From: Rhizophagus irregularis
Lineage: Eukaryota
Direction: 5' to 3'
Assembly: GCF_026210795.1 (NCBI RefSeq)
Contig: NC_089433.1
Span: 2,914,001 to 2,978,000 of the forward strand
DNA length: 64,000 bases
Numbering within the stretch: position 1 is the first letter of the stretch; each line of letters starts with the position of its first letter. Made by a program: the position numbers and the translations under genes. Of the stretch, positions 2,085 to 54,567 are shown one piece after another. Below the pieces are notes generated by a model. It was not told the DNA's origin, did not search any database, and was given only the letters and a program-made list of their open reading frames with translations.

Positions 2085-4908
2085 TAGGTAATGATGAATT
2101 TTCTGAAATATATTCAGCAGTATGGAAGGATGGTCCATTATATTATATTATAATAACGATAGATATGAATTCAAAAGAAATCAAAACAAAAAGGTTAATT
2201 TAAAACGTCTAAATAGCTCTCAAAATATTACTAATGAGGTATATAGTTTAAATAAATTAATTTGTATACATTTTGTATATTAATAATAAATTTTTATATT
2301 TTAATAGGTTAAAGTATCTATAATTAAAACATATGGAGTAACTCAGGATTTGGATACGAAAGATTATATTATAGTCTTTGAAAACGAATGCTACTGTGAA
2401 AAATGTGGTAAAGAATTTACAGATATAAATCTTAAGTGGTGTAAAACATGCCAAGTAAATTATTTAAAAAATATTACAATTTGGACAAATGAAAATGGAA
2501 AAATTAAAAATTTAATTCGAGAAATGCAATTGAAAATTAATAAACCATATTATATAGTATTCGAGTGGATTCCATATAATCAATTTAGTAATATTGAAGA
2601 AATAGGCACTTTTGTTAAGGTGTATTCAGCAACATGGAAGGACGGTCCATTACATTATGATAGTGATAAATACGAATATATAAGATATCAGAATGAAGTA
2701 GTTGCTTTAAAATGTTTATATGACTCCCAAAATATCACTAATGTATTTCTTAATGAGGTATGAAGTTTTTATAAATTAATATAATATATTTTTAACTGGA
2801 TAATAATAGCTTTTTTTTATATTTTATTAATAGGTTAGATCATCTTCAATTAACCATTATTGCAATAACAGTACTACAAAAATATATGGAATATCTCAAA
2901 ATCCATATACAAAAAATTATATTCTAGTTTTTAAATATTGTGAAAATAATGATAGTAATGATAATAATGAAAATTATGAAAATATAACTATCAAAGATAG
3001 TTATGTACTTGCAAATTGGATTAGTGAAAACAATGTACTAACTACAGTAAAAATACTTACAAATTGGATTAGTGGAAATGAACAAATCGACTATTTAATT
3101 CAAGAAATGCAATTAAAAATCAATGACCTACATAATATAGTATTTGAGTGGATACCATATGATGAGTTTAATGACATTAAAAAAATGGATGAATGTAATT
3201 TGTCCGAAATATATTTAGCAATATGGAAGAATGGTCCATTATATTATAAAAACCAAATTGGTTTTGGTAAAAATATATATACGAGAAACCAGAATAAAGA
3301 AGTTGTTTTAAAATGTTTGTATAACTCTCAAAATATTACTAATATATTTATAAATGAGTTATGAAAATTTCCAAAAATTTAGTTTATGTACTTTCTAATT
3401 TTACAATAATTTTTTTATATTTTAACAGATTAAATCATACTACATAACTTGTTAATCATGATGATATTCCTAAATTATATGGAATATCCCAAAATCCAAA
3501 TACAAAAGATTATGTTCTAGTTTTTCAATATTATGAACCAGTTATTAAAAACAAGCATATAATAATAAAAATACTTACAAACTGGACTAGTGGAAATGAG
3601 AAAATCGATGATTTAATTAAAGAAATGCAATTGAAAATCAATAAACCAAATGATATAGTATTTGAATGGATTCCATATAATCAATTTAGTAATATTAAAA
3701 AAATAGGTGAAGGAGGCTTTTCTAAAGTATATTTTGCAACATGGAGAGTTGGTTTATTACATTATGATGGTAATAAGTATGCAAGAAAACGGAATAAAAA
3801 GGTTGCGTTAAAATGTTTATATAAATCTCAAAATATTACAAGTAAATTTTTAAATGAGGTATGAAATTCTCCGTAAATATAATTTACATACTTTTTTTTA
3901 ATATAATAAAGAATAATTTTTATATTATAATAGCTTAAAGCATATTCAATTGAAAATCATTATAATTATTACACTAATAGGATTCTTAAAATATACGGAA
4001 TATCTCAGAATCCAGATACAAAGGAATTTATTATGGTTTTTGACTATGCAGAAGGTGGAGATTTAAATCATTGGATGAATAAAAATTATAGCGATTTTGA
4101 TTGGTTAAGGAAATTACTTTTGTTGTGGAATATTATTAATGGACTTAGAGAAATTCATCAAAAACGGATGGTTCATCGTGATTTTCATACAGGAAATATA
4201 CTATTAATTAATGATGATGTAAAAGATTACATGGATGATAATATTGTACATATTTCAGATATGGAATTATGCGGAGATGTTAGTAATATTGATCAAAATA
4301 ATAATTATGGAGTTATACCTTACGTAGCTCCTGAAGTGCTCAAAGAGGAACCTTATACTCAAGCAGCGGATGTATATAGTTTTGGTATGATTATGTATTT
4401 TGTAGGAACTGGAAAACAACCTTTTTCTGATTGTGCGCATGATCAATACTTAGCAATAAGCATATGTAATGGAAATAGACCTGAAGTAAATGAACCAGAA
4501 ATACCAAAATGTTATAGTAAATTAATGAAAGAGTGTTGGGATTCAACCCCAGACGATAGACCAGATGCGGAGAAAATTTTTGAATCAATAAATTTATTTT
4601 ATAGTTCATATAAAGATGATGAATCAGACTTTAAACGTTATATGAAGATTGAAAAAGAACAACAACACTATGAAATTGAAAAACAATTCAAAGAAGCAGA
4701 AGAATATAGAATATCAAATCTCTCTTCTTTTGATAAAAGTATTAATACTCATACACAAGCTATTTATAAATCTCGATTACTTAATCCTTTCACCAAAAGT
4801 CTAATTATTGATTTTACAAAGTAAGTTCATAGATTTTTAAATTTGATAATTATTATACTTTATTAATATGAAATTTAATTCTTTATACAGAATAAATAAA
4901 GAAGATTA
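2085..4908 (+). pseudogene. Tyrosine-kinase-like (TKL) kinase with four tandem N-lobe modules, probably disabled
   Basis: Repeated modules FEWIPY..F..I..IG.GGF..VY.A.W..GPL...VALKCL..SQNIT..FLNEV, each followed by an intron at the same position and then IYGISQNP.TK.Y. C-lobe has HRDFHTGNIL, ISDME, PYVAPEVL, ADVYSFG. The donor near 3359 reads gag|tt instead of gag|gt and the next exon (from 3429) has a stop/frameshift. Confidence 0.8.
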
Positions 4909-6050
4909 AACGCTATTAGTTTTTAGCATGAGTCAGTATAATAAATCTTTAGCTTATTGTTAGCTATAAACAATATTTTTAGTTTTAAATTATTTACGTG
5001 TAAACTTTATTTTTTTTACATAAATAAAATCAGTTTAATATTTTAATTATTTTAGCACTGTAAATATATTTTAACCATAATTTATAATGCCGTAAATAAA
5101 TATCCAATAATAATTTTGTATTATTCTTAAGATCGAAATTTAATAAATTGGTGTGTGTAATCAATGATAATTTTTAATAATAAAAAAAATAATGAAATAT
5201 GAATTTTTACGGATGGCGGCTTTTATTTATGGCAGTTAGTGTATGAATAATTAAAATTTCAACCTCACATGGCAATCTTTAGTGATTGTACATATTTTGA
5301 AGTGAACAAGAGTTGTATAGTATTATTTAAGTCTTCTTTTATTCATGTTGCTACTTGCGTACAATTGGTCACACTAATTCTTTAAAAACATCTAAACATC
5401 TAAAAATCACAAAAATATATGTATTATGATCTAACAAATCACTTTTCAGCCACGTGATCACGCGATCAGAATTTTAGAACAAACCAATCAAAATGTTTAT
5501 TATCTTGTTTTATTAGTTCAGTTAACATAACTAATAAAATTTATAATATCATAACAACAAAAAATGTAAAAGTAATAAATTGAAGTGTTACGCCGTAACA
5601 ACAGTGTTTCTTTAATATTCAAGATTCGCACGTATAAATAATATTATGAGATAATTAAATCGAAAAAGAATTGAAAAAGATAATTTTATATTTCATGATG
5701 TAATATATAAAAAAATTTCCATAATTTTCCATATCATTTTTGTTTCACACTTAATTAATAGAAGGCAACTTTTCCCTATTCAAAATATCTTTTATGGTAT
5801 ATTTAAGTAATTACAGAATATGATGTAGATAAAAACTGCTAGGATAATATTTTTGTTATAAGATAACAAGAAACGTTAATAAACGTTTCTAATTAAAAAT
5901 TGAATATTAAAAAAATATTGAAGCTCCTCCACTTACCTTTTCAGTTCATAAAAATCGTCCGGCAAGTAGAGACCTAAAATAAAAAAATGAAAATGGGTCG
6001 TTGGTAGGTAGAGGATAGGAAACCGCTTTGGTCACTGCATTTAATTTGCG

Positions 6051-6468
6051 ACCTATGAAAAAGGAATATCCGGAAAATATCAATGAAAGTGTCCGAAAAT
6101 TGTCCAGTATTTCAAAAAATTGTCTTGAAAATGATTTACCTTTGTTGTCCGGAATTTTTTCATGTCCAGGGTTTGTCCAGTTTTTTTGTACATGAAGAAT
6201 TCGGGACAAATTCTAGACAAATAAAACCAACAAATTCCGGATATAAAAATTTCAGAATATTTAATTAGACATATTCTAGAAATTATTTCTAAAATAGAAA
6301 AAATTAAATTAAAAAAAATTCAAAAAGCTCAAAACAGATGTTTAAAACCTCCCCCTGACGTAGATAGTGGTAATCTGCCGGGCATATTCCAAACATCCGG
6401 AAACGCACACGTTTTGGAACATTTTCCGAAGTTCAGGATGAGTTCCGGATGCATTTTTTTTCGTAGGG
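6051..6468. mobile_element. Non-autonomous DNA transposon (MITE) with CCCT...AGGG-type ends
   Basis: Left acctatgaaaaaggaatatccggaa is an imperfect inverted match to right ttccggatgcattttttttcgtaggg. Interior is rich in tccgga/ttgtcc motifs. Confidence 0.55.
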
Positions 6469-7227
6469 CGATAGTCTACACATAGACGTTTATCGCCTCC
6501 AATAACAACAGGTGAGGCGCTTTATAACATTTTTCCCAACACGTTACATTTCTCTCGTTATAACGAGTCAGCCAATTAAATTCTCTTAAATTCTTCGCTA
6601 CAATCTTATAGCGAATTTGAGGAGGATTGGGGGCTGACGATAAAATAATTTAAACACATTCATCTCTAGTTCGCTAAATTTAAAACTGCGTGATGCAATG
6701 AAGAAACCTAAATACTGTATAAATGGAATTACATATGGCTTTACGTTAAGAAGATTATTTTAAAAAATATTTTTAGGAAATAAAAAAAGACTTACTGTCG
6801 TGTTAATAATATGAATTAAATAACATGGTATCCCTGATAGAAAATTATTTAGTAAATTATGAATAAACTCGAATAATTTACTTCTATCTTTAACGTGACA
6901 AAACAATCTGGTATATATTATATATGTATATTTATAAAATTAAGGTATATATAATCAAAGTATGAAATTTAATAAATAATATGTAAAAAATAAGTAATGG
7001 AGTAGTGGATAATGAGAAGTGAGAACGGTATAAATATTATAAATATCGTCGTCATTTATGCTGACGTCGATCAACTAACAATTGAAACATTTATTTGTGG
7101 GAAGCAAATCATCAAACACTGTGGTGTGCTAGTAGTGTACTACGTATAACAAACTTATATGCAGTTTTGTTTTGCTCACATTTCTTCCATAAACTCTTTC
7201 CGAGTTCTTTAAAGAATTTTATATCAT

Positions 7228-8833
7228 ATGGATTATATTAAAGTTTGTAAAAAGCTTAAACTAAAAATTATATTAAGTGCTATGTTTTCAAAAGAGTTGA
7301 GGGAATTGATTATGCTTAATGGAGTATGTCCTGATTGTAAAGAAATTAATACAGGTTGGGCATGGTGCAACAAATGTGATCCAGGTCGATTTTTAAAGGA
7401 AGGAAAAACAAGTGGAAATCCTGATTTTGATAAATTAATACATGAAGCTCAACTTGAAACAAGAGATTATGGTGACAACACAGAATGGATACCTTTTGAA
7501 AGATTAAAAGATATTAAACCTATTGGAGAAGGTGGTTTTGCTACAATTTATTCTGCCACTTGGTTGGACGGAATTCCTGAATATTTATCTAAAAAACGTC
7601 GTAGTGAGCCTCAAATAGTCGCACTTAAAAAATTTAAGAATTCAAGAATTATGATTGGAGCATTTACTGATGAGGTAAATATTATTTTTTAATTATTAAT
7701 TTGATGATTTTATATATTTATTTATCATTCTTATGTTAGATAAAAGTACATGTTAAATGTTCGGGCTGTATGGTTCAAAAATTATACGGAATAACAAAAG
7801 ATCCGAAAACAGACGAATTTTCTATGGTTATAATGTACGCTTCAGATGGAAATTTAAGAGATTATCTTAAAAAAAATTTTTCATCCTTAAAATGGGAAGA
7901 AAAATTACAAAATTTATGGTATATTATAGATACTCTTGGAAAAATCCATGACATAAATTATATTCATAAAGATTTGCATAGTGGAAATATACTTATGTAT
8001 AAACCTAATGTTGATGATTTGAGTGGCACGATGATTTCGGATTTAGGACTTTCACAATCAATATATGACTCAAATAATTCTACAAATGTATGTGGAGTAT
8101 TACCTTATATAGCACCAGAAATATTTAATGGTAAACCATACACAAAAGCAAGTGATATTTATAGTTTTGGCATTATTATGGTAGAAATGTCTACTGGAAA
8201 ACCACCCTATGGGAATATATCACATAGCGATGATCTTGCATTAGCAATTTGCGTTGGTTTAAGACCAAAAGTTATTAGGGGAACTCCAAAATGTTATATC
8301 GAATTAGTTAATAAATGTCTTGATTCTGATCCAGAGAAAAGACCTTCTTGTAATGAATTATTGAGCGTAATATTTAAATGGAATTTGGAATTTATCAATG
8401 GAAAAACAGAATCAGAAATTGTAAAAGAATTTTCTAATGCAGATGCGATTGTTTCACGAGAATATTCTTCTAATGAGATTACATTACATCCTGAAGCAAT
8501 TTATACAAGTCGTCATATGAATTTTCGTAATCTCCCTAAATCGAGAAATTCTTTAGGAGTTCAAGTTGAAAATTCTGAATGTAAATATTATATATTTTAA
8601 ATTACTTAATTTATATTTAATTAATTAATTAATTAATTTTAAATCTTCAATCGTTTACAGTTTCTGATCCTAATTTGCTTGAAAACTTTATTTATGACGC
8701 TGTTAAAGAACAAAGTCAAGGTATATTATTTAAAATATTAAATGTTAACTATAATATTAAAAATTATTAATACAGTATTTATTTTTAATAAAAAAATTTA
8801 GATAAGATTGAAGTAGAAAGTACGAACGAATAA
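7228..8833 (+). CDS. TKL-family protein kinase with N-terminal CxxC..CxxC motif
   Basis: Exons about 7228(or 7282)-7674, 7740-8580, 8661-8720, 8802-8833 join in frame at GT-AG introns. Motifs GEGGFATIY, VALKK, HKDLHSGNIL, ISDLG, PYIAPE, SDIYSFG. N-terminal CPDC...CNKC. Confidence 0.9.
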
Positions 8834-14113: not shown

Positions 14114-16108
14114 TGAGCTTGGCGAAATCGTGGAATTAATAATTTAAAATAATTATAATGCAAAATTTTACTAGTCGGCGGAAGACCTGTAACAGTTTTC
14201 GAATTTCTACGATAATTACAATATTATATGATGTTTTTAAAATTATAAAAGAATTTATTGTTCAATAAACTTATTGTACTCGCAAATTTATTAAAATCAG
14301 TAGAACAAGAGATAATGTAAGAAATCCTCCGTTTAAAATGTTAAATGTCTTGGGTGGTAGCTCAATTTCGTGACAATGGGAGTGATGATCTGATGTTGAT
14401 CAATGGATTATCCGAAAAAATTCTTGAGTCTACATGCGTTTTATTACCGCTCTAGCATACCATATGTAAGTGCGTTGTTTCAATTAAATCTTTTAATAAT
14501 TGTTAAAGCTAATAAATTATTACTTTTTAAGATACAAAATATCGTTTTAAATTTTGTATAATATTTTGCGCGATATTAGTGGTGCCGACATAACTGAAAC
14601 CAAATACTAAAATTGTTTTATTATTTTAGGTTTAGCTAGTTGCATACAATACGCAATTTGATAACAATACATTCCAAAAAATTTGTTTTCATCATAAAAT
14701 AATCATGAAACTCAAAAAATTTTTCTGAAGAAAACTCCGATAAATGCTTATTTTTCGGCATGTGATCAATTTTCTAAAAAATTTTTTTATCAACAATTAT
14801 AATTCCGTTAAAACTCCATTAGTTCACTACGCGAATACATCTATCAGAATTAAGATTTTTAAGCCGGAATGTGTTATATGTGTTATACGGTATAGTGTAT
14901 ATAATAATATAATTCTGAAGATTATTTACATTATAGTTTTTTTAATTGTAAATATTATTAATAGGGAATAGAGATATCTAGAGATATCGGCCGAAGACCT
15001 GTAATCTACACGATACTAGTAATTAATAAATGCGTTACTAATTTTTTTTTAAAAAAAAAAAATCGGCCGAAGACCGTTACTAATACTGATTTCAATATTG
15101 GATATCTAATAACAATACCAGTCATTAAAATCCCGCATATTCCTAATCGACTGAACAATAATTTTATTATAATAATATTAATATAAATCGCATGAATCAT
15201 ACGCATCATACGCGTATCCAGATAAATTTGATGGTGGCAATATGATCAAAATTTTTTTGGGGGAACTACTGCAATTCCGTTAATATTGTCTACAGTATAT
15301 TATGTCAGATTAATCCTTCTTTTTTCTTATTTAAAATTTTTTTTATTAACAAGTTTCAGAATATGTGTTTATTGGAACTTTGGTTCTCAAATTCTAAACC
15401 ATGTGTATAATTTTACCATTTTAGCAATTTAGAACAACGTTCGTAACGCCTCAAATGATAAAATTTTCACTTGATACAAATATTCCGTTTTACATCAGGA
15501 CCCTAAATAGGTAACAAGAGGGCTTAATATATAACTCTACGCATCTCTTCAGGGTCAAAGTTACATAAAGCCGCCTGGCATTGTTCAAAAAAGGAAGGAT
15601 CTACATATTAGTTTAGGGTTCATTCTACGTATTGTTACCTTTTTATGTATTTGATAAATGATACCACGGGGATCTGCAAGAAACCGATTGTAATAAGGAA
15701 TAATAGTAATAATAATATTTCACATTAATTATTTCATGGCGTAAGGGCTTGAAAATCATTGTTTTATAAATAATAGCCATTATTTATATATATGTACATA
15801 TATATTATTTCTTTTAAAGAAAAGAAGAGTAACACAAAATTTTCATATTGTTTCATAGCTACCACGTGTGATCCTTACCAAAATCGGTTAAATCCATTTT
15901 TGATTGTTAATAATAAGAAAAAGAATTGTTGTAATTTAGAATGACACCTCATTTAGGTTACGCTTACGTCCTTGAAAACTTTCTAGAAATGGGACTATTT
16001 ACTTGATATCATCTTTGATTTGTAACTTAAAACGTAATAATTGCAATTACATCAAATAATAATAACAAAAAAAAAAAACTTTTGTATATTATACTATCAT
16101 TTTAAACT

Positions 16109-16215
16109 CGAAACATTTAAGGATTGTTTTACGAAAAAGAGTATCAAGATATTTCCAATATAATCGGATTAGAATTTTAGTATTATTTTACGTTTGTTTC
16201 GAAATATTATAAATA
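16109..16215 (+). promoter_or_regulatory. Putative promoter of peptide gene A: CGAAACA motifs and TATA box
   Basis: cgaaaca at 16109-16115, tgtttcgaaata at 16195-16206, tataaata at 16208-16215. All are retained in copy B. Confidence 0.5.
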
Positions 16216-16340
16216 TGACTTCAAATTCTCTTTCAAATTTTCTATCAAATAAAACAAATCTCAAAAAAGTTAAATTACTTTAAATCAAAAAAAAAAACTT
16301 CACAAAGACTAATAATTTTAAAATAACAAATCGAATCAAA

Positions 16341-16436
16341 ATGAATCCAATCATCAATACCAAACCAGTTGTTATTGTCACTTCTGAAGTAACTGAAAAA
16401 CCGGGTAATCCTACCAACTCATGTTCTATCATGTAA
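16341..16436 (+). CDS. Candidate farnesylated lipopeptide (a-factor-like) pheromone precursor A, 31 aa: MNPIINTKPVVIVTSEVTEKPGNPTNSCSIM
   Basis: A-rich start context (caaaATG), no signal peptide, terminal CaaX box CSIM directly before TAA, upstream TATA, near-identical paralog with conserved frame. Confidence 0.75.
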   Translation: MNPIINTKPVVIVTSEVTEKPGNPTNSCSIM

Positions 16437-17295
16437 AACGCAAGTTTTACTTTGAAATTTACTTTGAAAAAAAGTTTTTACTCTACAATTGTTCTTTTTA
16501 TTACTTCCGACGGATATAACTGAAGAACGGAATAATTCCTCTTATTTTACTGACCTGATGCTTATTATCTCCTTAACGATTTTTACAAAAATGAATCAAT
16601 TTATTTTTTATTTTTTTTTTAATTTTAATTTATCTTGTAATTTATATGTCCGGAACGCAGTTCTAAATTCCCTTTATTAATATTATCCCAACTTTTATTA
16701 ACTTTATAACACGTGATTTATAATAATAAGCGATGGGTTCGTTTACCTAGTTGTAAATATTTTTATCTTATCTTAATAATAAAAAATTTTGAATCGTAAT
16801 CTATTAACAAATTTTAAATATGTGTATCGTTTTAAAAGTGTTTATATTAATGAATTTTCTATAAATTAAATCTTGAATTCATGATTTATATCATGAAAGA
16901 AATATTGATTTTTGACTTTGAAAATAAGTTGAATGAATGAAAGTTAAAATTGAGAAATGTAATCCTTAAAAGCATCAGCAGCGGCAGCAACAGAACCGGC
17001 GGTAGTAGAACTAATTTAATAAGTAAAGAGAAATTTTTGTACAGGCAAAATTATATTCAAATGAAAATATAACAATGATCGTATTGTTCTTTTCTATCAA
17101 AAAAAAAAAATAATAATGAGAAAATACTGGTTAAGTAGAATTCATTTTCTTCAAGCAAAATAAAATTCAAAGTAAAAAATTAAACGAACATAAATAATGA
17201 ATATTACACTTATTATTTATATTAATTTTAGCAAAATTATAATTAAAGTTAAAATCCAATGTAAATTTTCTCATGTCCCACGCTTTTATCATACT

Positions 17296-17459
17296 TTTTT
17301 TTTTGTCCGGAGCGGAGCGAAGGACAATATATGTCATCTACGCACTATGAAAAAAAATTGATCACGTGAATTTCTCTGTCCGCCACGTGATCGTCATCCA
17401 ATGAAATCGCAAATTTTAGTTTTTCGCTCTCGGACTTACAACGGTTCCCGTTTCCTAGT
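17296..17459 (+). mobile_element. Short Helitron/Helentron-like non-autonomous element
   Basis: T-run then gtccggagcggagcgaaggac, subterminal inverse ctctcggac, and 3' hairpin aacgg-ttc-ccgtt followed by ctag|t. Confidence 0.45.
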
Positions 17460-18551
17460 TTAATTTGTCATTATTTCTAGGCGCTTTAATAAATTGATCA
17501 CATGTTTGAGTTTTTTTTTTTAGAGAATTTTTTATAGGGTTTCATAATGATAAATTTAGCAATAAAAATTTAATTAGAGATTTTTACTTAAAAATCCTCT
17601 ATATTAATTATTATTATATAATTTGTTATCAAATATCAGATATATATTATATACAAATAATTACTAATTCTGGAAGAGAAATTAGTTATGTATAAGGAAC
17701 ATGTAAAACTTACCAATGCATTATGGGATATCCTAATGTTTTGAAATCAATTCAATCAATTCATAAAAAATCTAAAAAAGACATAACAAGGATATGCATG
17801 AAACAGATTTAATTGAGAAATAAAGGTCATGAACTGTATTAAGGAGAGAGAAAATTATCAAACATTTAAAAAGAGAGATTTTAGTTTATAAAATCTTAAG
17901 AATTTGAGTTTTTTTTTTTTACTGAGACATTTCTTTTTTTATTTAAAAGTCCTCGTGAGTTAAAATAATAATTTAATCCTTTTGATTTACATTTCGCAAG
18001 TCAAGCTGCTGTGATTTGAATCATATAAATTAAAATTGGTTTATTTGGATTCTAATTCATATGCTACTAAATTGATCATTTCTAATTTTGAAAATTTGAT
18101 CATTAATTTGTAAAGATGCTAAATGATTTTTTTACTAGCAAGAAAATATTATTCTTGAAAATTGCAAAACATTATATTTGCAAATATTATATTTACGATA
18201 ATATGAAATATTATAATGAAATGTTACTAGTTTACTAGTTGATGGAAGAACTAAAATTAGTTACATAACAGTTTTCGAATTTTCTTTAATAATTACATGA
18301 TATCATTTTTTTTTTATTCAGGAAATAAGGTTAAATCTATTTTTGATTGTAATCCTAATTTAATAATAAGGATTGTTGTGATTTAGAATGACATCCTATT
18401 TTGGTAGGTTTACGTCTTTGAATACTTTCCTGAAATTGGTAAATGCATAAATCAAAAAGAAGGGGTCTATTTATTTTTGATTGGTAACTTAAAACAACAA
18501 TTGCAATCGTATCAAATAATAATAATGAGGAAAAAAAAAAAAATTTAAACT

Positions 18552-18645
18552 CGAAACATTTAAGGTATCAAGATATTCCGATATAATCGGGTTAGAATTT
18601 TTAGTATTATTTTTGATATTCGTTTGTTTCGAAACATTATAAATA
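18552..18645 (+). promoter_or_regulatory. Putative promoter of peptide gene B: CGAAACA, palindrome TGTTTCGAAACA, TATA box
   Basis: cgaaaca at 18552-18558, perfect 12-bp palindrome at 18625-18636, tataaata at 18638-18645. Confidence 0.5.
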
Positions 18646-18787
18646 TGACTTCGAATTCGCTTTCAAATTTTCTATCAAAATAAAAAATCTCAAATAAAAA
18701 AAAATCTCAAAAAGTTAAATACTTAAATCAAACGAACAAAAAAAAACTCCACAAAAACTAATAATTTAAAAAAAAAATCAAATCAAA

Positions 18788-18883
18788 ATGAATCCAATCA
18801 CCAGTACCAAACCAATTGTTATTGTCACTTCTGAAGTAACTGAAAAACCGGGTAACCCTACCAACTCATGTTCTATCATGTAA
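18788..18883 (+). CDS. Candidate farnesylated lipopeptide (a-factor-like) pheromone precursor B, 31 aa: MNPITSTKPIVIVTSEVTEKPGNPTNSCSIM
   Basis: Same architecture as copy A: 4 nucleotide differences in 96, no indels, identical C-terminal 21 aa including CSIM-stop. Confidence 0.75.
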   Translation: MNPITSTKPIVIVTSEVTEKPGNPTNSCSIM

Positions 18884-19597
18884 AACGCAAGTTTACTTTG
18901 ACCTTTTCTTACTTCCGACGGATAACTGACGAACTGAATAATTCCTCTTTTTTACTGACCTGGCACCTTATTATCTCTTAACGATCTACAAGAATGAATC
19001 GTAATTTATATGTCCGGAGCGACGGAGCGTAGTCCTTTCTATCATAATTCCCTTTTGGATTAAACTATTTCCTTTTAATCTTTGTATTTATTTGTAACAT
19101 GTGATTTATAGTTACACGGATTCACAATAAGCGACGGACTTACTGTATATTATTTTATTTTATTTTATTTTAATAATAAAAATTTTGGATCGAAATTTGT
19201 TAACAAAATTTAAATATGTGTATCGGTTTAAAGTGTATATATTAATGAATTTTCTATAAAATAAATCTTGGATTTCATCATAAAGGAAAGATTGGTTATT
19301 GGCATTGAAAAAAAGTGAAATGAAAATTAGAATCTAAAGCTTAACTAACTAATTTTATAATAATTAATAATAACAGGCAGGATACGTAAAAGGAGAAATT
19401 TTCGTACAGGCAATATTTTATTCAAATGAAAATAAAACAATTGATCGTTCTTTTCTATCAAAAAAAAAAAATTTCTTTAAACATTGTTGAAATAAAAAAT
19501 CTATTGTCAAAATAATGAGAAAATACTGGTTAGGTAACCCAAATAAATTGGGTTACGCACTCATTTTTCCAGCACATTTGTGCAATCCTGTATCACA

Positions 19598-19856
19598 TAC
19601 AATAAGACCGTCGGTCTTTTTAAGGACCGCAGTCTTTTAAGACCGATCGGTCTTTTTTCTTTTTTTTTTGCAAATAAAGAAATTTTTTTAGCTTTAAATT
19701 TAATTTTATCATATGAAGACCGGTATGAGGACCGGTCAGTCCTCAGGTCCGGTCCTACTGCGCCACAAAAAATGCAAGACCGCGGTCCGGTCCTACAAGT
19801 CATGGGACTGACCGGTCCAGGACCGAATAGGACCGGTAGAACCGATGAACATCCTT
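19598..19856. mobile_element. Partial copy of GGACCG-rich MITE
   Basis: Reverse-complement match to about 24383-24625. Ends in agaaccgatgaacatcct, similar to the termini of the fuller copy. Confidence 0.75.
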
Positions 19857-19859
19857 AAT

Positions 19860-21050
19860 CGACTTCTTTAATTCATCCAACCTGAATTCCACGAGCCAAA
19901 ATATGATCATTGGCATAGTCTTTCTTTGCGATCACCAAATCTGTCGTCCCATCTATTTCGAAAGAGAGCGCATGATAAAAGTTCCTTTTTTGATCTAATG
20001 TCATAAAAATCACTTGTAGCAGAAACTTACATTTGCCAACTTTTTTCGAATAATCAATAGGCCATTATTCGCACTAATTCCATGAAATTCTATCATTTAC
20101 TTATGTAACTCAATAATAATATGTATATTATTTCGGGAGGTTGTATAGGAAATAAATTTACAACTTTGTTTGGGGAACAAATCTAATACCATTTAGAGTA
20201 ACAGGGCGGACATCCTCATATTATCACATTATTGCCGATCATTTTGCCGATCATCTATTTTAATATTATCACATAAAAAATACCATTTTTTTGCAAATTT
20301 AACTATATAAATTTTATTTGTTATCAAAATTCATCCAAAGTCCGAAAATTAATGTTTTCAAATCCAAAAATTAACTAAAACCCAAAAATGGGCTGAATTT
20401 TAATAATAATTAGAAAATTAAATTATTTTAATGATATTGTGACAACCAGTGATTAAAATTTAATTTTTGTTAGTTTTTTAGATTCATCTCGTCAAGACAA
20501 ACATTTTGATAGTAATTTCATAAAATTTTTACACTAAATTGATTGAGAAATTGCATTTTGAAAATTTCTATTTATTATATAGATTATAACAAATATAATT
20601 GCAAGTATAAATTTAGCCATAACTTCTTGATTACCTAAAATTAGGAATGATTACTTCGGCCATTGATTTTAAATCAGTTAAACTATGACCCATAAAAGTT
20701 TCAAGTTTCGGCCAAACTTCTGTGACTTCGGCCGAAGCTTTAAAGTCTGATATCACCCAATTTACTATAAGATCGGCAAATGATCGACAAGGTGATATAA
20801 GGATGTCCGCCCTGTTATTTAGAGTAGCCGCAATATCTACATTAGGATCACAAGGTTGCTCGAGTCGAAAAGGACGTTAACTACCCATAGTATAAATAGC
20901 CTTGTTGCAGTTTCATTGAATTCAGGCTCGTTCACTTGTTTAATTAACTTCTTAAGCTCATAAATGGTTATGTTATTTCCTGCTATGATTCTGAAATAAC
21001 AATCAGCAGGTTTACCATGAAAAAGACAGTTAAATGTGATCTCAAATCCA
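19860..21050 (-). pseudogene. Crinkler (CRN)-like effector remnant interrupted by a MITE
   Basis: ITFNCLFHG...F.I....TIYELKKLIK...EF...A..F.LWVV matches the CRN N-terminal ubiquitin-like domain pattern. An NNIHIIIE (HVLV-like) boundary motif lies on the other side of the insertion near 20110-20135. Stops and frameshifts are present. Confidence 0.7.
20200..20816. mobile_element. MITE with 9-bp target-site duplication (Mutator-like by TSD length)
   Basis: TIR aacagggcggacatcct / aggatgtccgccctgtt. Identical flanks atttagagt at 20191-20199 and 20817-20825. Confidence 0.9.
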
Positions 21051-22704
21051 ATAGCCAACAGGAGGTGAAAGAGTAGCAATAGTTAAAGTAGCTGAAGTGG
21101 ATGGAATAGACTTAATAGACTTCTTGGTAGTTGAAGTAGGATTTGACTAATTTAGGATTGAGGTTTAGCAGGTTTTTTTCCCTGACTTACAGAGAAATCT
21201 TTGTAATACAGAATACATTTCCAATTACACTGGGTTTATTATCAATTAATTAAATCAAAGTTTATAACACTAACTATATCATGGAATGTGTATTACTAGT
21301 TGAATATCTATGCGTAGTTAGTATGTCGTTAGTATCTATACAATTATGTAATTTTCAGCAGTTTACCCGTCTTTTTTGAAATAAAATAAAATAAACTAAA
21401 CTAAACTAATTATGTCATGTGCAAAGTGACATATAAATCAAAGATTTTTTCTCGTGATCGTGTTAGGTTATTAAATAAATTCTTCTAAGAAGTTTCCTAT
21501 TAGTTCATGTCCACTAGCTAGGCATGTTGTTAAGACTTTTGATGTATTTTTTGGAAGAGTAAAGATATCGCAAGATTTGAACGGAGGGTGACCAGAGATA
21601 TAATTAATATGACAGCGAGGATAACCTACTGGAACTGGAGGTAAGGATTCCAAACACTTTCTCAGCATGTTCACGATTGCATAAATTTTCTGAAGGCTTC
21701 AACGACAATTCTTCAAACGTTTGATCATGGGGCCATGATGGTAAGTAACAGTACTAATAATAGCCATTCAGGAAAAACTCGATATTGATGAAAATGCCCT
21801 TTTATTGAAATTTTAAAGACCTTTCTATTAACAAAGTCAAAGATGTCTTTATGATTCCTTAGGAATCAAAAATGAAGTCTACTGGCTACATTTGTAAGTA
21901 GGCTAACAATTAGATTGGTGTGTTACATATAAAAAACCGGTTTTGTAATTTTAGGCTAGACCAAATCTTTCCTCTTTGTGTTTAAACTAAAATAAGTAAT
22001 TTAACAAACAAACTTAATGGCAATCATGCAATGTTAAGCCCACTCCAAATCCTGATTTTTTCAAGGCTTAAGAATATCTATTGTCGAAAGAAAAATCTCT
22101 CACATCATTATCATTATATAACAATTTTTATTTGAAAATAAGGATATTTAATTTTTAATGTGTAAATTATTTCGAAATAAAGGCTGCAAAATAACGATCT
22201 AAAATTAGAATTTTTTTTTTCTCGAGAGAAATTTCATTTCACTCGACGAAAAAACTAAAAATACAGAAATATTTCTTTTTAAGGAAATAATTTAATTTAA
22301 TTGGATTTTCATTTAACAATAGATAAAGTAATTTCATACCGCATTTCCCACATTTCATAACTTTTTGTGTGACATGTCAATAAAAACTTTTCGGTAAAGA
22401 AGTTTCTTCGCTTTGTTATGACTTATGATATTGATTTATTTGATATGTTCAATATTTTATTCTTCATTCACTCAATGAAAAAAAAATTTCTTTTATTGCT
22501 GGAGATAAATCTATGACACATTATTATTTATCTCTTTTAAGATTATGCCGCAGGAGGTGAAATACATATAAAAATCCCAACTTTCCGCTTTATCCAAAAG
22601 ACAACCACATTAAGATTTATTTCCTCTAAATTTAAATAAAGGATATACAAATATATAAATATATACACATACAGACATACTTATATAATATATATACAAC
22701 AAAT

Positions 22705-23718
22705 ATGAAGCTTCAATATCTTCTCTTTGCATTATTCACGGTTTTTGTAATACAAGTTCAAGCTAACGGAGGTTACGATGATTACGAGCAATGGGAACAC
22801 AATTTTCCTGATACTTGTCAAGAACTTTTCAAAACTGAACATTGTAATGAATGTCAATCGTTAATGTGGAATCATTTCAAAAATCCTGGTCAATGTGCTA
22901 CTGCTTTCAATCTTGGCCGTGATATTTTTGAAATTATAAAAGATTCCGGTGAAGAACCAAAACCTTATGATCTTACATTCTTTAAGAAAGGTTTAAATAA
23001 ATATTGTCATGAAGAATTCCATTGTAGTCAAGATAAAGTTGAGAAGATTTATAATAATATACAAAAAGTCTGTAAACATGAATTAAGTGTTAAATTTGAT
23101 TGGAGTGATAATCCTGAAAATTTTAAAAATATTACCGCTTACGCTGCTTATGGTACTTTGCTCACTTATTACACTGGAATTCCTGCCCGAGAAGCTCTTT
23201 GTACTAAAAACAAGCATAATAATGGTGAGTTGTGATTTTAAAGTACAATCTTATTTAATGTTCTTTAGTGTATATCTTAAAATGTAACATTTGTAACTCT
23301 CAATTATATAGATTTCTATAGTTTTGAATTCATTGAGAAACTCACTCAATGGGTAAAGAATGAAACAAACGCTGATCCAAAGGCTGTTGTGACCCACGAC
23401 CTTAAATTTGTTATCAAAGGAAATGGAAAGAAAGTTCGTGTTCCAAAATCGTTCTTTTGCGATCCATGTTGGAGAAAGATAGCCCATATCTATGGTGATT
23501 ACATCAAAGATCATAGATTGAAGAAATCTGTCGAAAAGAATATTTGGGGATCTTGTCATGACTTAGAAAAACTATATCTCCCACATTGCACTTATAAACG
23601 TGGTTTAGGTGAAATTTTGAAAGATAGAAGTGATTCTAAATTAAGTGAACGTAACGCAAATCCTGCTTTTGGCGTTTTAAGTCATCGTATGAATAAATTA
23701 CATTCTTTAGCGATTTAA
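22705..23718 (+). CDS. Secreted cysteine-rich protein, about 309 aa, unknown function
   Basis: Signal peptide MKLQYLLFALFTVFVIQVQA. Exons 22705-23224 and 23312-23718 join in frame. 12 Cys including two CxxC. TATA-like tataaaa near 22567. Confidence 0.85.
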
Positions 23719-24382
23719 AAATCTTTTAGATAATAATCTAGACTATAGAGATGGATATTATAAGATTATGATTTTTTTAGATTCTTTTTAGACATAACTA
23801 TTCTAATTATTTTATTATTAATAAGTTTATCATTTAAATCTTCCTTTTGCTCAATTGTTCACATTTTCATGAAATGTTATAAAATACATATAAATAAATT
23901 CGTTCATAATTTTTAATTTCATTTAACGCAGAAAAATCAATACTGTACACATTTTTATACAATTCATTTGCTAGGTGCTATATCTTTTCTATTTTAACTA
24001 AATGATTCGTAGTTTATTTTTCTGTATTATTCCAACTAGCAATAGCAGAATTCTTTTGTATTATACTTCTCTTGTTTTGACCTATCTTTAAATTAATATT
24101 TGTATTTGCTACAATAAAATCATCAGTATGAATTCTGGTTTACTTGGCACTTTCTAACTAGTCTAATAACTCCGAGAAGTTTATTTCCATGCCTTAAATA
24201 TCAACACTTTTATTTTGTTAATCAAAAAATATTAATATAAGAGCTGCAGATTTAAATTTATACGAGAGAATATCGATCTAACTAATAACTATGCATGGTC
24301 GTAGCAAAATTTATTTCACAATAAATTTATTCGACTTCATTTCACTAAATTACCTGATAAAAATTTACCTGGTTCCATTTAA

Positions 24383-24724
24383 GATAGTTATCGGTCCTAC
24401 CGGTCCTACTCGGTCCTGGTCCCAGGACCGGACCGCGGTCTTGCATTTTTTGTGGCGCAGTAGGATCGGTCTCGAGGACTGACCAGTCCTCATACCGGTC
24501 TTCGTATAATAAATTAAATTTAAAGCTAAAAAAATTTTTTTATTTGCAAAAAAAAAGAAAAGAAAAAAGACTGATCGGTCTTAAAAAGACTGCGGTCCTT
24601 AAAAAGACCGACGGTCTTATTATATGCGGACCGAAAGACCGCAGTCCTACACCAAGACGGACCTGTCCGTCTTTTTAAGGTGTAAGACCGTAGGACCGCG
24701 GTCTTTTAGGACCGATGACCATCA
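24383..24724. mobile_element. GGACCG-rich MITE, near full copy
   Basis: Imperfect terminal inverted repeats gatagttatcggtccta / taggaccgatgaccatc. Many internal ggaccg/cggtcc motifs. Homologous to 19598-19856. Confidence 0.75.
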
Positions 24725-27976: not shown

Positions 27977-30900
27977 TTAGTCATCATTGTCTTTATCATC
28001 GTCATCTTCACCACCACTTTCATTTTCATTATTCTCATCCTCTTCATCCTCATTTTCTTCCTCTTCGTTATCCTCATCATTATCCTCATCATCATCTTCC
28101 TCATCCCGCTCTCCTTCATCCATTTCATTGTCATTATCGTCTTCCTTTTTAGTGTCCAAATTGGTTTCCTCATCTTTATCAACATCCATTGCTTCCATTT
28201 TAGCTTTTTGCTCTTTTGCAAAAGCCAATTGTTCTTGCATCATTTGATATACATATTTCCCCATATGTGTTACATCAGCAATTGTATATGCGTCCTCATA
28301 ATCATCAACCTACATAATAATTTTTTTTTTTGTTTAAAAAAAATAAGTTATAATAATAAAAGATTAGACAATGTTAAACAATGAAATACTAATATATACC
28401 ATCCTAGACGAAGGCCACATCTCATTAATTTTTAATTGCAATTTATCAGGACGCTCTAGTAATTTATTAAACGTAGGCGCCAATTCATAACAATTTTCAA
28501 ATATAGATCGACGGCAAAATACGTATAGTCCTAATCGAGCACGAGACATTGCAACAATAAGACGTCTAACATCTCGTATATGACCAACAGTTTTTGTACG
28601 AACCAAGGATAAAAGAATATCTAACATTTATATATATTATAATAATTAGTATTAATTGAAAATAGTAAATTACTAAGTTACCGAAAGCATAATAATTACA
28701 ATCATTTTGTTGTCCTTGAAACTTATCGACGGTTGTGACTTTTGCTGGACGCCCGAATAATGGATTCCATGAACACCGCTGACTCAAAACGTCCCTTATT
28801 AAAGCCTTCTGCCCATTGTAAGTTGTTAGAATTGTGATTTTATCTTCTGGATATCTATAATAAACAGATTAAACTTAAAACACTTTGATTTAATAATAAA
28901 AAGAATAATTAAACTATATTTCATTTACCCTAACAAACGCATATATTGGTATACTGCGACAACATATTCTGCCTCTCCAAGATTCTATAAAAAAAAAATT
29001 TATTTGTTAATCAATACCATATTAAAATAAACTAGCACTGCATTTATTCTCACCTGATAGAAGTATGGAACAGGTTCAGTTTCCCCTTTGTTCATAAATT
29101 CTCCAACATTTATTAATTGATAGTCAAACGTAAACCCAGCATTAGCCCATTTATATTCATCCGGCTCGATTACTGTTGGTAAATTTCCCAAATTCTTATA
29201 ACGCCAATTATATAGTTCTGCCATGGAAGGCCTAGCACGCCCCTAATATTATTTATTGAGTCCAAAGAATTGATTAGCATAGTAAAAAAAAAAGGTAGCG
29301 ATAAAAGTTTAAAAAATATACCTGAGAATCTAGATCAATGGTTGGAACACCAAGTTTAACAAATCTGGTGAATAAACTTTGTTCCATGTTTCCGTATTGT
29401 TGAAACGCCATGTTCTTCACTACAGGAGGTAACTGATTATGATCACCAATCATAATCACTCTTTTTAATCTACTTCGCCCATCTTCAGTTTCTTGTAGTA
29501 GCAAAGGTATAAAAGTTTCAACTTCTAAAATTTGTGCTGCTTCTTCCATTACTACATTATCATACTTAAATCCTAAAGAAACCAATTCACGTCGCTATAG
29601 TGAAAAATAAATAAATTAGCTTAATATAAAATCAATATAATTCAATAAAAATAAATACCTTTAGTGCGGCATGAGTGCATGTCATTGCAATGATTTTAGC
29701 TTCTTTTGTTAATAAATAATTAGCTCTATCATAGCTAGTCCTAAGTAATTCAAATCCACGAATCTCTTCAAGTTCCGTGAAAATTTTTTCTATATGTCGA
29801 AAACACCCCACTGCGATTTCTAACGTATCTTCATAACTTGCATCTTCGGGAAATAATGGCTGAGGTGCATCATAAAAATAGGCAGTAAAAGGAAATTCAT
29901 TCCTTATTGTATCTACATTAACGTTCTCGTTCGTTAACCCTTGCCTACATTTATCAATGTAAGGCTCCCATCTCGACTGTACGTGATATAAATAAAAATA
30001 CCCGGCGGTTTCACATGTATATCCATATTCACCACCAATTTGCAATGATTGAGCAAGTCGATCTACTTCCGAAAGCAGGGATAACCGTTTTTCCTATAAA
30101 TTACAATAGCATTTAAACCTAAAATAAAAAAGGAGCAAACAACAAAACAATAATTACCAAAAATGAATTGACTCTGCCATATTTGCTAAAGCTTAATTCT
30201 GTATTGAGTTCCTCTTCACCATGACCCAACCTAAGTAAATGTCTCTCATCAACGTCTAAATTATCAAGATAAAAATAAACAATTATTAGGATAAAACTTA
30301 TTGATTCTTTTTAGTATATACTATATAAAATGTAAATACCAAGTGCCATAATTTTCTCGAACAACTGATTCAGAGCTTGGTTACTGTGTGTAACCAATAA
30401 CGTATGCTGATCAGGGAAATTATGATATAAATTTGCAATAATCTGGACAGCTACATCTGTTTTACCAGTACCTGGGGGACCAACAACCATCGTAAGACCC
30501 GGATTTGTTCCTGCTAAAATAGCGCTTACTAATACAAATATAATCCATTAAAATTAGCTAATATTACCTTTTTTTATTTTTTTTTTTAATCAATAATAAT
30601 AAAGAAGTTTACCTTGTACGGGAGTGAATTTAATCGTATTCTTTCTAGGCTGGTTAAATGGATAAGGGCCCATGTTTGGTAGGCTATAAGTTCTGACAAT
30701 TATCTGGTCTGGGTCCATTTGAGGTTGAGATGGATCTATATTTTCAGCATCCTCAACTTTCCTCTTTTTTGAGGTTGGGCCACCTTCAGTTATAGGAAAT
30801 TGTAGAACATAAGGTGGGGGGATAGGAGCTTTGAAGCCTTCTGCTGGTACAATTTTCTAAATAGAAGTTTGCGTAGTTTTTTAGAACCATATTTATTTAA

Positions 30901-33900
30901 CAAGTTGATAAGCGAACATTAGATTACCTTGTCAGGAAAGCTTTCAATCAAATGATCATAATTTAAAAAAGTATCTCGAAAATCAATTTCTTTAGGTCGA
31001 TTTGGCATCATTGTATAGTGAGCACTACCAGGATGGCCATAACCTAAGAATATATTATGTAACCAATCTGGTACAACCAATTCACTTTGCATTAAATCAC
31101 GAATTGTTTCAAGAACAGACTTAAAATTGTTTTCCTAATAATGTTTATAATAATTAAAATATAAAAAAGAAGTTAAGATATGTCGAATATTACAATAGTA
31201 AATCATAAATGAAATTTACTTTCGGCTTTCTTCTCATCAAAATATTAAAAGTTTCATATACGTCTTCATCTCTGACACTTGAATATTTATCCATATCCAT
31301 CTAGAAGATTAAAATAAAAAGTGAGATTTATTTCTAATTATTTCTAATTTTTGAAAATTTTGAAAACTAAAATTACTTTGTACTGATTCGGGTCCAAAAA
31401 CACACGAATTGTTCTTATATTTCCAGAAATATTGGGTTTTTTATCATCAATACGTGGCTTACCAACTTCATCAATTGGCTTGCCTAAAGAAATTATAATT
31501 TAATATCATAAAAGTGAAAGAAATTTTAAGATTGCAAATTAAATTACCATCATCGCCGATTATATCGCTCACTTCACAACCTCGAATGTATTTTAATCCG
31601 AAATGTTGTCTTTGAAACATAATTTTAAAATTAATTATTTGACAATAAAATGTACACGAAAAAAAAAAATTATGTATGAACGACGCAAACCTGAAGGGCA
31701 TAGCATCATTATATTTTTCGGCTGTTCCATCGTGGGCATGTATTGTTAATAAGAACAAAACATCATGTTGTTTCAAAGAATCCCATTCATTACGGATGGA
31801 TTCCGTATAACGACCTATGTCGAAAGAAATCTATAAAATAAAGATTACATATCAAAACAAATAACTTTAATAATTTACGAAATATATTATGACATTTAAA
31901 ATTATAAACATACATCAGCCTTGACTCTTGAGGGCTTGCTTTCACCGATGTTCGGTTTAGCTACCTCTATTATACTTAAAAATTTTTAGACATAAATTAA
32001 TGATTAATCTCACATTATTGAACGAATTACAAACACGTTTAATTCTTACTTAAATGTTTCTATCTCTACTGCCATACGAGCCCAACCGGTGAATTCAGTT
32101 TTACTCGATGGATATGTAGACCTTGGTGCTAATCGTTTTACAACATCTTCAATATCTTGTCGAATTTCATAAGTTGTTTCCATTCGAAATAAATTGAAGT
32201 TTCTTAATAAATAATCGTGGATAGTGAGAAATTGTAAATTGAGTTTAGGTAATGCAAGCGGTGCTTCATTATTCCAGAATTGAGTTTGCACAACGGCATC
32301 GTCGAATATAGCGTTCTGATGAAAAAAAGTATTTTAATTAATAAATATCTTTTATAAATCAACAAATTACCGGAATATATATTACTTAAACTAACCTCAT
32401 CTGGATAAAGTGGTTTCGAATTTATTAAATCAATTTGACTCGTTCTCTTTTCAAATTTACAAACTAGCACCTCCACTAAAAAATCCTTATCGTATTGTCT
32501 TTCACCAACCAATTTATTTGTTCTTATGCTTAAAAATCCACATAGTCTTATTATTTCTTCATGAGTTAATGCATTAAAATGTTTTTGCAAGTCAGGTCTC
32601 CGTTCAATAGAGGCAAAATTTGATAATGCCAGTGATTGCAAAGAGTCCCTAAAATGTTCGAAAGCAATGTGCTATAATAAAAAAAAATGTTGTAAATCTA
32701 TACCAAAGAATATATTATCAATTCAACTTCATAATTAAAAAATACCTGAAGATCAGCCAATTTTTTACAATGTAATTCTGTCATCTGGTCATCCGTCAAA
32801 GCTAAACCAGTATTATCATCAATTTCAAAACCAACATAGAATTTTAATATATCTAAAAGCTGCTTAAAAAGTTCACTACAATTAAAAAAAAAAATTAAAT
32901 AAAATTCTAAAAGTAAATAAAATATCTAAAATAAAATTTATATTAAAATTTAAATTAACTAACTTTGCGCTATCACGCTTCATTATTGGCGCAAATTTGC
33001 ATAATATTAATATATGGTGATCTTCTAATAATTTATTAAAATAACGTCTTGTTGGGAGTTGTGCTTCAAGGTCAATCAAAAATTCCAAACAACGTTCAAG
33101 AAATGCTATAACTTCATTGTTCACTTAAAAATAAATTGAAAATATACATATCATTTAATATTAATTCAAAAAAAAAAAATTATATACATATAATTTTAAC
33201 ACTGTACCTCCTCCATCTTCGGGTATTGTATATAAAACTTCCACAAAGGCCTTCATAAAATTGCTTAACCATGTTCTCTCAAATATAATTTTTTCCTTTT
33301 GTGATTCATCTAAAAATTTAATTTTAGTTAGAACATTAAATAATAACCATAAAATACATTAATCAAATAAATACTATCAAAGTACGAACCAAAGAATCAT
33401 AGAATACCTGCTTTTTTGAACTTTTTTGCAAATACATTCCACATCTTTTTTAAATCTTTATTATTTGCAAATTCCTGATCTCTCAACGATGATGTACCAA
33501 AACAATGCCACGTTACAAGTGACACCAATCTGCAACAAAAAAAACCAGATATAAAAAACATTCAGGATGATTAAATTAACTGAATAGAAAAAAAGTCTCT
33601 TAAACATACATCATACATTCTCCTCTGATTAATGGATTTTCTATACTCTGAAAAACACGAATTAGGAATAAAACTATATATTTTCTCACTTTAGGCGAGA
33701 GTGTGTTTGCAAGTGGTGGAATGGAAAGCTCGAGAACACGTTTGAAGAAACCTGGAAATTGTTCAGGGCTTTTCATAAAACAATCTAATGATATATTAAT
33801 AAAGAAATGAGGCGAAATTAGCTCTTATTTGAATTATTAGACAAGCGTTTAAAGAACTTACCCCATGCAGCAACTCGTTCCCGAAACTTTTCATTAACCA

Positions 33901-34308
33901 TCAATACGATTGACAATACATGAGCCAACGATGCTTCCGTATGTTCAAAATTCGGCCAAAGGTACTATAATTTTAAAAAGAATTAGTGATTGTTAATTGA
34001 TTGTTTATAAACAATAATTATAAATCACACAATTAACTTACTTTTTCCAGATATTGGCTAAGTTCTAGTAATGTTAGTTTCTTCGGTTCAAAACCTTTCA
34101 TTTCTAATTCCTCAGTATAAATTCTCTCAATAACAAGCGGATCCCATACTCTCTTTGTAGGATCTTTATTGTTCCAGTAAGTTTCAGCTAAATGAGTTAT
34201 AGAATCAGCTTTCATATCTTGAAAGGTTGGGTAATATACCCCAGACCTTGTACTTTCAGTTGGTGGAGCATGTGGTGGTAAAGTCGTAAGACGCTCCTCG
34301 GTCGACAT
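27977..34308 (-). CDS. AQR: Intron-binding spliceosomal SF1 RNA helicase Aquarius (IBP160/Cwf11)
   Basis: Multi-exon. Motifs [109 protein letters not shown]. Acidic tail. Confidence 0.97.
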
Positions 34309-34514
34309 TTTTGTATAAAAACTTGATCAAAAAAATTGGTTGTGGATCAAAATAAAAAATTTAAAAATTTTATCCAAATTTATAGATTATATCACGTGAT
34401 GAATTATTTTTGTGCAGTATTTCTTAATAAGGTTAAAATTGTGTCGCAAAAATTAGTTATGTAACGACATTTTTTTTTTTGAAAAGTTTTTTAGATAATC
34501 TTTCACTCTGCGAT
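34309..34514. promoter_or_regulatory. Bidirectional promoter between AQR and UTP7
   Basis: The two start codons diverge about 206 bp apart, with a central palindrome atcacgtgat (CACGTG E-box) at 34391-34400. Confidence 0.65.
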
Positions 34515-49246: not shown

Positions 49247-49539
49247 TTTTAAGAGAAAAAAAAACAATTTCGTATATTCAAAGTTTAAGAATTGTGGTTA
49301 TTTTAATTGCTGTTGACTTTTTATCTTTTTATAGATAGAGATTTTCATCATTTAAATTAAATTATCTAGAGCTAGTTGATACACAGTATGATCTCATTTA
49401 TATTAAATTATCTAGAGCTAGTTGATACACAGTAGAGGGAATATTTTCCAACGATCACATAATTCCGGCCAGAATTACAAAGTTGAAGGTAAAGCAAAAA
49501 GATGAAATAGAAATAAAATAAAATAAATAGTAAAAAAGA

Positions 49540-49663
49540 AATTAAAAACCTAAAACACGCCTTCGCTGCAGCACTGAGAGAACAAAGATGTCAACTCCTC
49601 AAAATCTAAATGCTGATTGGCTTATTCATCCGTCCGGCGCAGCGCGACGGGCTACAGCTAGTT
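49540..49663 (+). mobile_element. Helitron-like 3' terminus remnant
   Basis: GC hairpin ccgtc-cggcgcagcgc-gacgg followed within about 10 nt by ctag|t. Left boundary uncertain. Confidence 0.45.
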
Positions 49664-54104: not shown

Positions 54105-54567
54105 TTTTTGTTCTTATAGTTAATTCGTGATTCATATGAGAACCAGAGCTATTTATATTAAAAAATCGGGGATATCAGTATAAATTTGTAATGATATAAT
54201 GATATAGCATATGCAACTCATGCGTGGTACATCACTTAATACGGTATTACACACGTTTCAAAAAATAAAAACCGGAAAAAGAAATGCATCATATAAATTT
54301 TTTAATTTTTTAAAAGAAAATTTAATTGAAAATCTAATTTTTAAAATCTGCCGATCAAATTGTCCGATCTAATTATCCATTCAAAAATTATTTATACGGG
54401 GTAAACTAAACGTTACCGATCGACAGGAATTTTATTAGTATATTAAATCAAGAAATTGATTTATTAGCAGGGGAGCTGCTATTTGATTTATTTCATTGCA
54501 TTATAAAACAATAAGGACGATTAAATAAATCATAAATACTTTTTTGAATTTTTATTTCAAAATTTTT

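Follow-up and report, generated by a model that had tools for sequence, protein, structure and literature searches.

The window analysed here, a stretch of 64,000 nucleotides (64 kb) of Rhizophagus irregularis DNA, contains two almost identical reading frames of 31 codons, and the question that they raise is what these frames encode and which part of the product is under constraint. A sequence-only reading of the locus had proposed a dispensable pro-region followed by a constrained mature ligand, on the basis of the few differences between the two copies. Each frame lies in a duplicated unit:

16341..16436, + strand: copy A ORF, 31 codons and a TAA stop (96 nt), single exon, C-terminal CSIM
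18788..18883, + strand: copy B ORF, 31 codons and a TAA stop (96 nt), single exon, C-terminal CSIM
15886..17137, + strand: duplicated 1.2-kb unit A (promoter, ORF and 3' region), from blastn against unit B
18329..19536, + strand: duplicated 1.2-kb unit B, from blastn against unit A

The two units are 69% identical, with 48 gap openings (blastn). The counts given earlier for the ORFs were reproduced exactly: there are 4 differences in 96 nt and no indels, three of the changes being replacements (I5T, N6S, V10I) and the fourth silent at Asn23 (aat/aac), with residues 11-31 identical. No other 96-column window of the A/B alignment matches as well as the ORF (92/96), which lies inside the longest gap-free run, of 120 nt (the next longest is 56). 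The flanks had been described as rich in indels and in substitutions. The indels are indeed there: the 953 aligned flank positions contain 78 gap openings, and at this rate the probability of no gap in 96 positions is around 4e-4, a value that depends on the alignment parameters. However, the flanks are not significantly richer in substitutions than the ORF (74/953 versus 4/96, Fisher p=0.30).

Regarding the substitutions, whole-ORF pN/pS between A and B is 0.95. The lone change within codons 11-31 would be silent with a probability of 0.24, and all three replacements would fall in codons 2-10 with a probability of 0.028, for a boundary picked post hoc. On their own, these substitutions do not show the purifying selection on the C-terminal part that had been read from them: with this pN/pS and a flank-like density they are within chance. 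Only the missing indels, not the substitutions, exceed chance in the A/B pair. Since the ORF is gap-free and its substitutions carry no signal, the pair points to constraint on the frame, without region-specific selection.

Copies A and B are alike in having an in-frame stop upstream, no in-frame ATG upstream and no nearby acceptor; in copy B the stop is at 18767 and the preceding 40 nt hold no [CT]AG acceptor. These features rule out that the ORFs are terminal exons, and for copy A an unspliced RNA contig starting 46 nt upstream rules it out as well. The start context is A-rich and identical in both copies. Furthermore, both ORFs are preceded, 133-150 nt upstream, by a common element:

16191..16215, + strand: upstream element CGTTTGTT...TATAAATA with TATA box, copy A, pattern match
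18621..18645, + strand: upstream element CGTTTGTT...TATAAATA, copy B, one of 2 matches in the window

These 2 matches compare with 0.01 expected, for a pattern drawn from copies A and B themselves. The same element is found in two of three soil-metagenome loci that hold homologues (L002 608-631 and L003 1444-1467), and the third locus starts within it. A second promoter copy stands at the end of L003 (1424-1583), therefore tandem gene arrays exist elsewhere. The part CGTTTGTT (16191-16198 and 18621-18628), which precedes the TATA box, presumably resembles the sites at which HMG-box proteins bind in mating genes of fungi. Arbuscular mycorrhizal fungi have many HMG-box genes.

Two RNA contigs, from runs X19 (16332-16652) and X20 (16295-16548), span the whole copy A ORF with no mismatch and no joint, and a third with polyA, from run X18, covers 16410-16751; taken together, copy A is covered in 3 runs of 2 studies with no mismatch. 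Such contigs tell that the sequence occurs in RNA libraries but say nothing of its level or strand, and they could stem from DNA carry-over; the libraries are root or host-associated, with no known mating context. No contig of X18-X20 lies on the copy B ORF or on intergenic DNA. Contigs can neither prove absence nor rank genes, so we make no statement on which copy is more expressed. A further contig set, X16, covers all 30 bins, and its RNA nature is a guess only. An Rfam scan of 15000-20500 gave no match. Taking all the evidence, that both ORFs are real peptide genes is practically certain.

The rest of the window includes an inverted, MITE-like pair of elements of about 260 nt each, 85% identical (19596-19862 and 24374-24626), flanking a gene (22636-23718) whose product is hydrophobic at the N-terminus and matches no Pfam family. 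There are also two inverted duplicate cytochrome P450 genes with 68% DNA identity (47459-49248 and 56799-58600), a third P450 gene near 52-53 kb, and short tandem-repeat arrays at 49650-50175, 54560-55030 and 62900-63830, the last one also self-inverted. Genes of the kinase family that contain internal repeats, a gene for an Aquarius helicase and a BTB-BACK-TLD gene (2100-8600, 28500-34400 and 38993-40600) are ordinary Rhizophagus content; one Aquarius exon is 99% identical to R. irregularis.

Do the peptides have relatives? Profile, representative, cluster and metagenome searches gave 54 distinct homologues. From the profile searches 26 of 377 and 49 of 1718 candidates were taken as relatives, and from the metagenome scan 3 of 183 pattern matches; the representative search gave 14 sequences, 1 of which, the unrelated 609-aa repeat protein P0150, was removed before the count, and a cluster look-up added 4 more. 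The motif [TS]-N-x-C is present in 50 of the 54, and C-x-x-M is the C-terminal end in 41 (CSIM in 38), in a set biased toward keeping a CaaX end because the search profiles include the C-terminus. The remaining 13 are mostly gene models extending beyond the box, or partial or degenerate copies. A taxon is given for 7 homologues, all of them Glomeromycota (R. irregularis 4, R. clarus 2, Acaulospora colombiana 1) and all recorded as hypothetical or unnamed proteins, while the other 47 are environmental. Frame, start and CaaX-stop are kept across two orders of Glomeromycota. Judging from the sequences, then, the two window ORFs belong to a Glomeromycota family of short peptides that is present in multiple copies and ends in a CaaX box.

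By exact look-up the peptides of both copies were absent from the protein collection, and no Pfam family matches them. ESM Atlas queries with two members (P0001 and P0123) gave no usable match, which carries no weight. A PDB match to yeast Mpp10 residues 350-363 (7suk/5wlc, E 0.04-0.1) was treated as chance; it involves peptide residues 7-19, where the L002 peptide is identical at 11/14. The single match of the viral scan (44%, L001) was set aside.

In 3 DNA runs we found many paralogous contigs over codons 8-31, including some with in-frame 3-nt insertions. The commonest variant base of codon 23 is on 11-13 contigs per run, and the summed contig depth over codons 22-31 is 27-46x that of the copy B 3' flank, a ratio that should not be read as a copy number. 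One inserted nucleotide and two replacement changes (18808, 18852, 18863) occur at equal depth in the 3 runs and are likely one frameshifted paralogue. At L004 128-220, ATA replaces the start codon, with frame and CaaX-stop retained; this is either a pseudogene or a sequencing error. Markers at 18812, 18830 and 18838 (P9T and an in-frame S-A-E insertion) are in X4 and X8, not in X6 and X16. They appear to match the A22-Q23 peptide type of P0129/P0144, and their distribution hints at strain-specific peptide types, bearing in mind that contigs cannot prove absence.

The extension to homologues, which had been asked for, was made with pN/pS and supports constraint. Over residues 8-31, pN/pS is around 0.2 against the metagenome sequences, that is, 0.18-0.24 in 6 of 6 pairs between a window copy and L002, L003 or L004 (Fisher p 0.0003-0.009, uncorrected and from non-independent pairs). 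At the sequence level, these comparisons demonstrate that purifying selection acts on residues 8-31. Among paralogue variants, in a table that excludes changes close to contig ends, codons 19-31 show 5 silent versus 2 replacement changes (p=0.006, which weakens to p=0.025-0.04, with up to 5 replacements, when the A22-Q23 type is added), and codons 8-18 show 3 silent and 8 replacement changes, the neutral expectation; the contrast between both parts is not significant (p=0.14).

These results also bear on the idea that the ORFs are chance frames in a repeated non-coding element, whose similarity comes from recent duplication or gene conversion. The A/B pair on its own, with pN/pS 0.95 and undiminished substitution density, would agree with it, as would the absence of either exact peptide from the protein collection; gene conversion could account for the identity of the tandem units described below. 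Nevertheless, 120 nt without an indel against 78 gaps in the flanks, pN/pS of about 0.2 against other lineages, paralogue insertions that are in-frame (3 nt) and the preservation of frame, start and CaaX-stop in two orders make this explanation extremely improbable.

The peptide can be divided into four parts:

Codons 1-7 (A 16341-16361, B 18788..18808), + strand: variable leader, removal predicted
Codons 8-16 (A 16362-16388, B 18809..18835), + strand: hydrophobic spacer, predicted pro-segment
V17-C28 (A 16389-16424, B 18836..18871), + strand: predicted mature core, 12 residues, putative cleavage site
C28-S-I-M31 (A 16422-16433, B 18869..18880), + strand: CaaX box, predicted farnesylation signal

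The CaaX box was absent from the sequence-only reading and is the key feature of these ORFs. Among 599 short window ORFs only one other besides copies A and B is CaaX-ended, a 28-aa frame at 42703-42789 (+) that is rich in basic residues and ends in CIVM; it could represent the final exon of a small GTPase-like gene. No KR/RR/KK site is present in the window peptides. Their most hydrophobic 8 residues are at 10-17, and by hydropathy only there is no N-terminal signal-type stretch.

The leader holds 2 of the 3 A/B replacements and varies in length, with 3-8 residues separating M-N-P and K-P in the homologues. The spacer is conserved in most homologues and is different between the units of one precursor. 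In the Acaulospora homologue (P0170) the hydrophobic block is absent and the 17-28 core is kept. The scaffold of this core is E-K-P-x-x-P-T-N-x-C.

The units just mentioned come from 15 of the 54 homologues, including the R. irregularis protein P0129, which hold two tandem units of 22-26 residues each; the leader is not repeated and the inner unit is closed by CSIM or a near variant. Both window copies are single-unit. In the 15 tandem precursors, unit-to-unit mismatches number 6/180 at positions 17-28 versus 17/60 at 13-16, with a nominal p=3e-7 that is overstated because six tandem rows are of one peptide type. Gene conversion may contribute to the identity. Since the units agree over 17-28 and not over 13-16, we place the constrained core at about 12 residues.

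The earlier proposal can now be revised. A variable pro-region followed by a constrained C-terminal ligand is supported through the homologues, not through the 4 A/B differences from which it was drawn, and residues 11-31 do not stand as its boundary, given that about 17-28 is what is kept identical between units. The constancy of the C-terminal part holds in the A/B pair and not family-wide, where positions 22, 23 and 27 vary, also among R. irregularis-labelled proteins; position 23 is the most variable of the core. In 5 DNA sequences, residues 20-27 vary at 5/8 positions versus 1/12 for 8-19 (p=0.018). Positions 22, 23 and 27, which vary between members and are kept within a precursor, would be specificity positions. 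Against this layout, the spacer 8-16 is more conserved between species than 20-27, unlike a typical pro-region.

The conserved spacer could have another meaning. The peptide might remain intracellular and unprocessed, as a microprotein anchored in the membrane that docks a partner through residues 9-14, for instance calcineurin via a PxIxIT-like motif, which binds as a short beta-strand (accessible part of PMC3582496). This block is conserved between species, and P-x-[IV]-x-[IV]-T stands at residues 9-14 of copies A and B and of L002-L004 (p of about 0.03 by shuffling, post hoc). However, P-x-[IV]-x-[IV]-[TS] is found in only 18 of the 54 homologues, position 14 being Ala in 23/42; the block is absent in the Acaulospora homologue and differs between units, whereas 17-28 does not; and an inner CaaX box is useless without cutting. 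We therefore hold a microprotein to be quite unlikely.

The reading that we prefer is that the ORFs probably encode a-factor-like farnesylated peptide precursors, which are candidate ligands of the Ste3 reported in Rhizophagus. In yeast, the a-factor precursor undergoes farnesylation, trimming, methylation and an N-terminal cut, and leaves the cell through an ABC transporter (accessible text of PMC2134810). By analogy, our precursor would be farnesylated at Cys28, AAX would be trimmed and Cys28 then methylated, an N-terminal cut near residue 16/17 would release a core of about 12 residues, and a Ste6-type ABC transporter would export this core, which the Ste3-type receptor would then sense. 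The predicted core equals in length the mature a-factor, of 12 residues according to the available part of bioRxiv 10.1101/2021.09.28.462209. A 2013 survey (PMC3834313) reports, in its accessible sections, that Rhizophagus has orthologues of STE3 (one copy) and of STE6 but no gene for a peptide pheromone, and calls for new methods to find it.

The filters for yeast a-factors in bioRxiv 10.1101/2021.09.28.462209 include a CaaX box, size, multiple copies, conservation that peaks in the mature part and an Asn site. Several traits of a-type pheromone genes were found here: a C-terminal CaaX followed by the stop in both copies and 41 of the 54 homologues; a length under 100 aa (31 aa) with no secretion signal (by hydropathy) or Kex2 site; several copies with a near-identical mature part (2 in the window, paralogous contigs, tandem units); and, in the 15 members with tandem units, the splitting of units by CaaX-like boxes that marks the RHA type. 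Conservation peaks in the mature region between units and among paralogues, not between species. The Asn cleavage site 5-20 residues before the Cys, used by Axl1/Ste23 in Saccharomycotina, is present in only 17 of the 41 CaaX-ended homologues, and in the window peptide it is borderline (N23, 5 residues). Thus, with CaaX, size and copies as expected and the Asn site unconserved, the peptides would work in an a-type-like way, not as a yeast-type a-factor. No STE3 Pfam match was found in the 27 of the 47 window ORFs of at least 90 aa that were scanned, and no receptor linkage was seen.

The steps of this reading are not equally firm. Prenylation of the peptides is highly likely, and that the processed peptide is a Ste3 ligand seems, from the analogy, reasonably likely. 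A mating-specific role is somewhat doubtful, and the least certain point is whether it would be a mating signal or serve general hypha-to-hypha recognition or fusion. The single reported STE3 copy fits poorly with several peptide types. On co-inoculation, no pheromone genes were up-regulated among the annotated genes, as far as the accessible part of PMC7490403 goes.

The peptides might also be prenylated and exported for a purpose other than Ste3, as a plant-directed signal or effector or as a bulk surface lipopeptide. Their many copies and the RNA cover in root-associated libraries are in line with this, as is the tail of plant HIPP proteins, which end in a similar Asn-Pro...CSIM. Moreover, PMC6339444, in the part available, puts forward functions other than mating for repeat peptides of R. 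irregularis that resemble pheromones. Yet the CaaX box, the tandem units with inner boxes and the 12-residue core are the architecture known from a-type pheromones of fungi, and Rhizophagus is reported to have an exporter and an orphan receptor of the a-factor type (accessible text of PMC3834313), so that we consider a non-Ste3 purpose unlikely.

Sex and individual recognition in the supposedly asexual arbuscular mycorrhizal fungi are a long-standing question. With the a-factor-like reading, the CaaX family offers concrete pheromone candidates where a receptor and an exporter were reported without a ligand, and makes pheromone signalling and sex in these fungi directly testable: the 12-residue core can be synthesized with a farnesyl group and tried on hyphae or on a yeast-expressed receptor, with no need of fungal transformation. 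We tentatively suggest that the family is the a-factor-type pheromone that arbuscular mycorrhizal fungi had seemed to lack. It would then be the ligand of the orphan Ste3 of Glomeromycota and the first lipopeptide pheromone to come from outside Dikarya, and the variants at 22-23 that differ between strains would be recognition types for fusion or mating between individuals. If true, lipopeptide pheromones would not be confined to Dikarya, the CaaX pheromone-Ste3 system would predate the Mucoromycota-Dikarya split, and there would be a way to act on hyphal fusion and on the breeding of an agricultural symbiont.

Compared with known systems, the family is like S. cerevisiae MFA1/MFA2 in its short precursor, N-terminal extension, core of about 12 residues, CaaX box and several gene copies (PMC2134810 and bioRxiv 10.1101/2021.09.28.462209, both in their accessible parts). 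Unlike MFA1/MFA2, with which no sequence homology is detectable (Pfam), the Asn before the mature part is unconserved (17/41), the pro-segment of the window family has a conserved hydrophobic block, the family lies outside Dikarya and its function is predicted only. Rhodotorucine A and related precursors consist of tandem units with inner CaaX-like boxes (available text of PMC3068285, PMC4675872 and PMC3236058). Like the Pucciniomycotina RHA and Microbotryum a1 genes, as far as these sources describe them, our family has near-identical units split by CaaX-like boxes, several loci per genome, and single-unit and multi-unit forms that co-occur. Unlike the RHA type, only two units were found in searches that reached 98 aa, they are 22-26 aa long with a long spacer, and no linkage to a receptor gene was seen in the window. 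The Hypocreales HPP1 precursor, in the accessible part of PMC3068285, similarly has a repeated Cys motif, one of them C-terminal, with a polar residue after the Cys ('CPAX', here CSIM); HPP1 differs by its three short motifs and by its putative Kex2 sites, dibasic sites being absent from the window peptides.

A literature search, largely without subscription journals, found no CaaX peptide precursor reported in arbuscular mycorrhizal fungi, and an earlier description is possible; none is named in the accessible parts of PMC7490403, PMC6339444, PMC11414155 and PMC8778642, and CAAX is mentioned 0 times in PMC6339444. The closest parallel within the same species is that of the R. irregularis KEX2-processed repeat proteins (KEPs), which the available text of PMC6339444 presents as repeated peptide precursors proposed as signals. 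The KEPs are alpha-factor-like, with a signal peptide and KR sites, whereas the CaaX family has neither and ends in a CaaX box.
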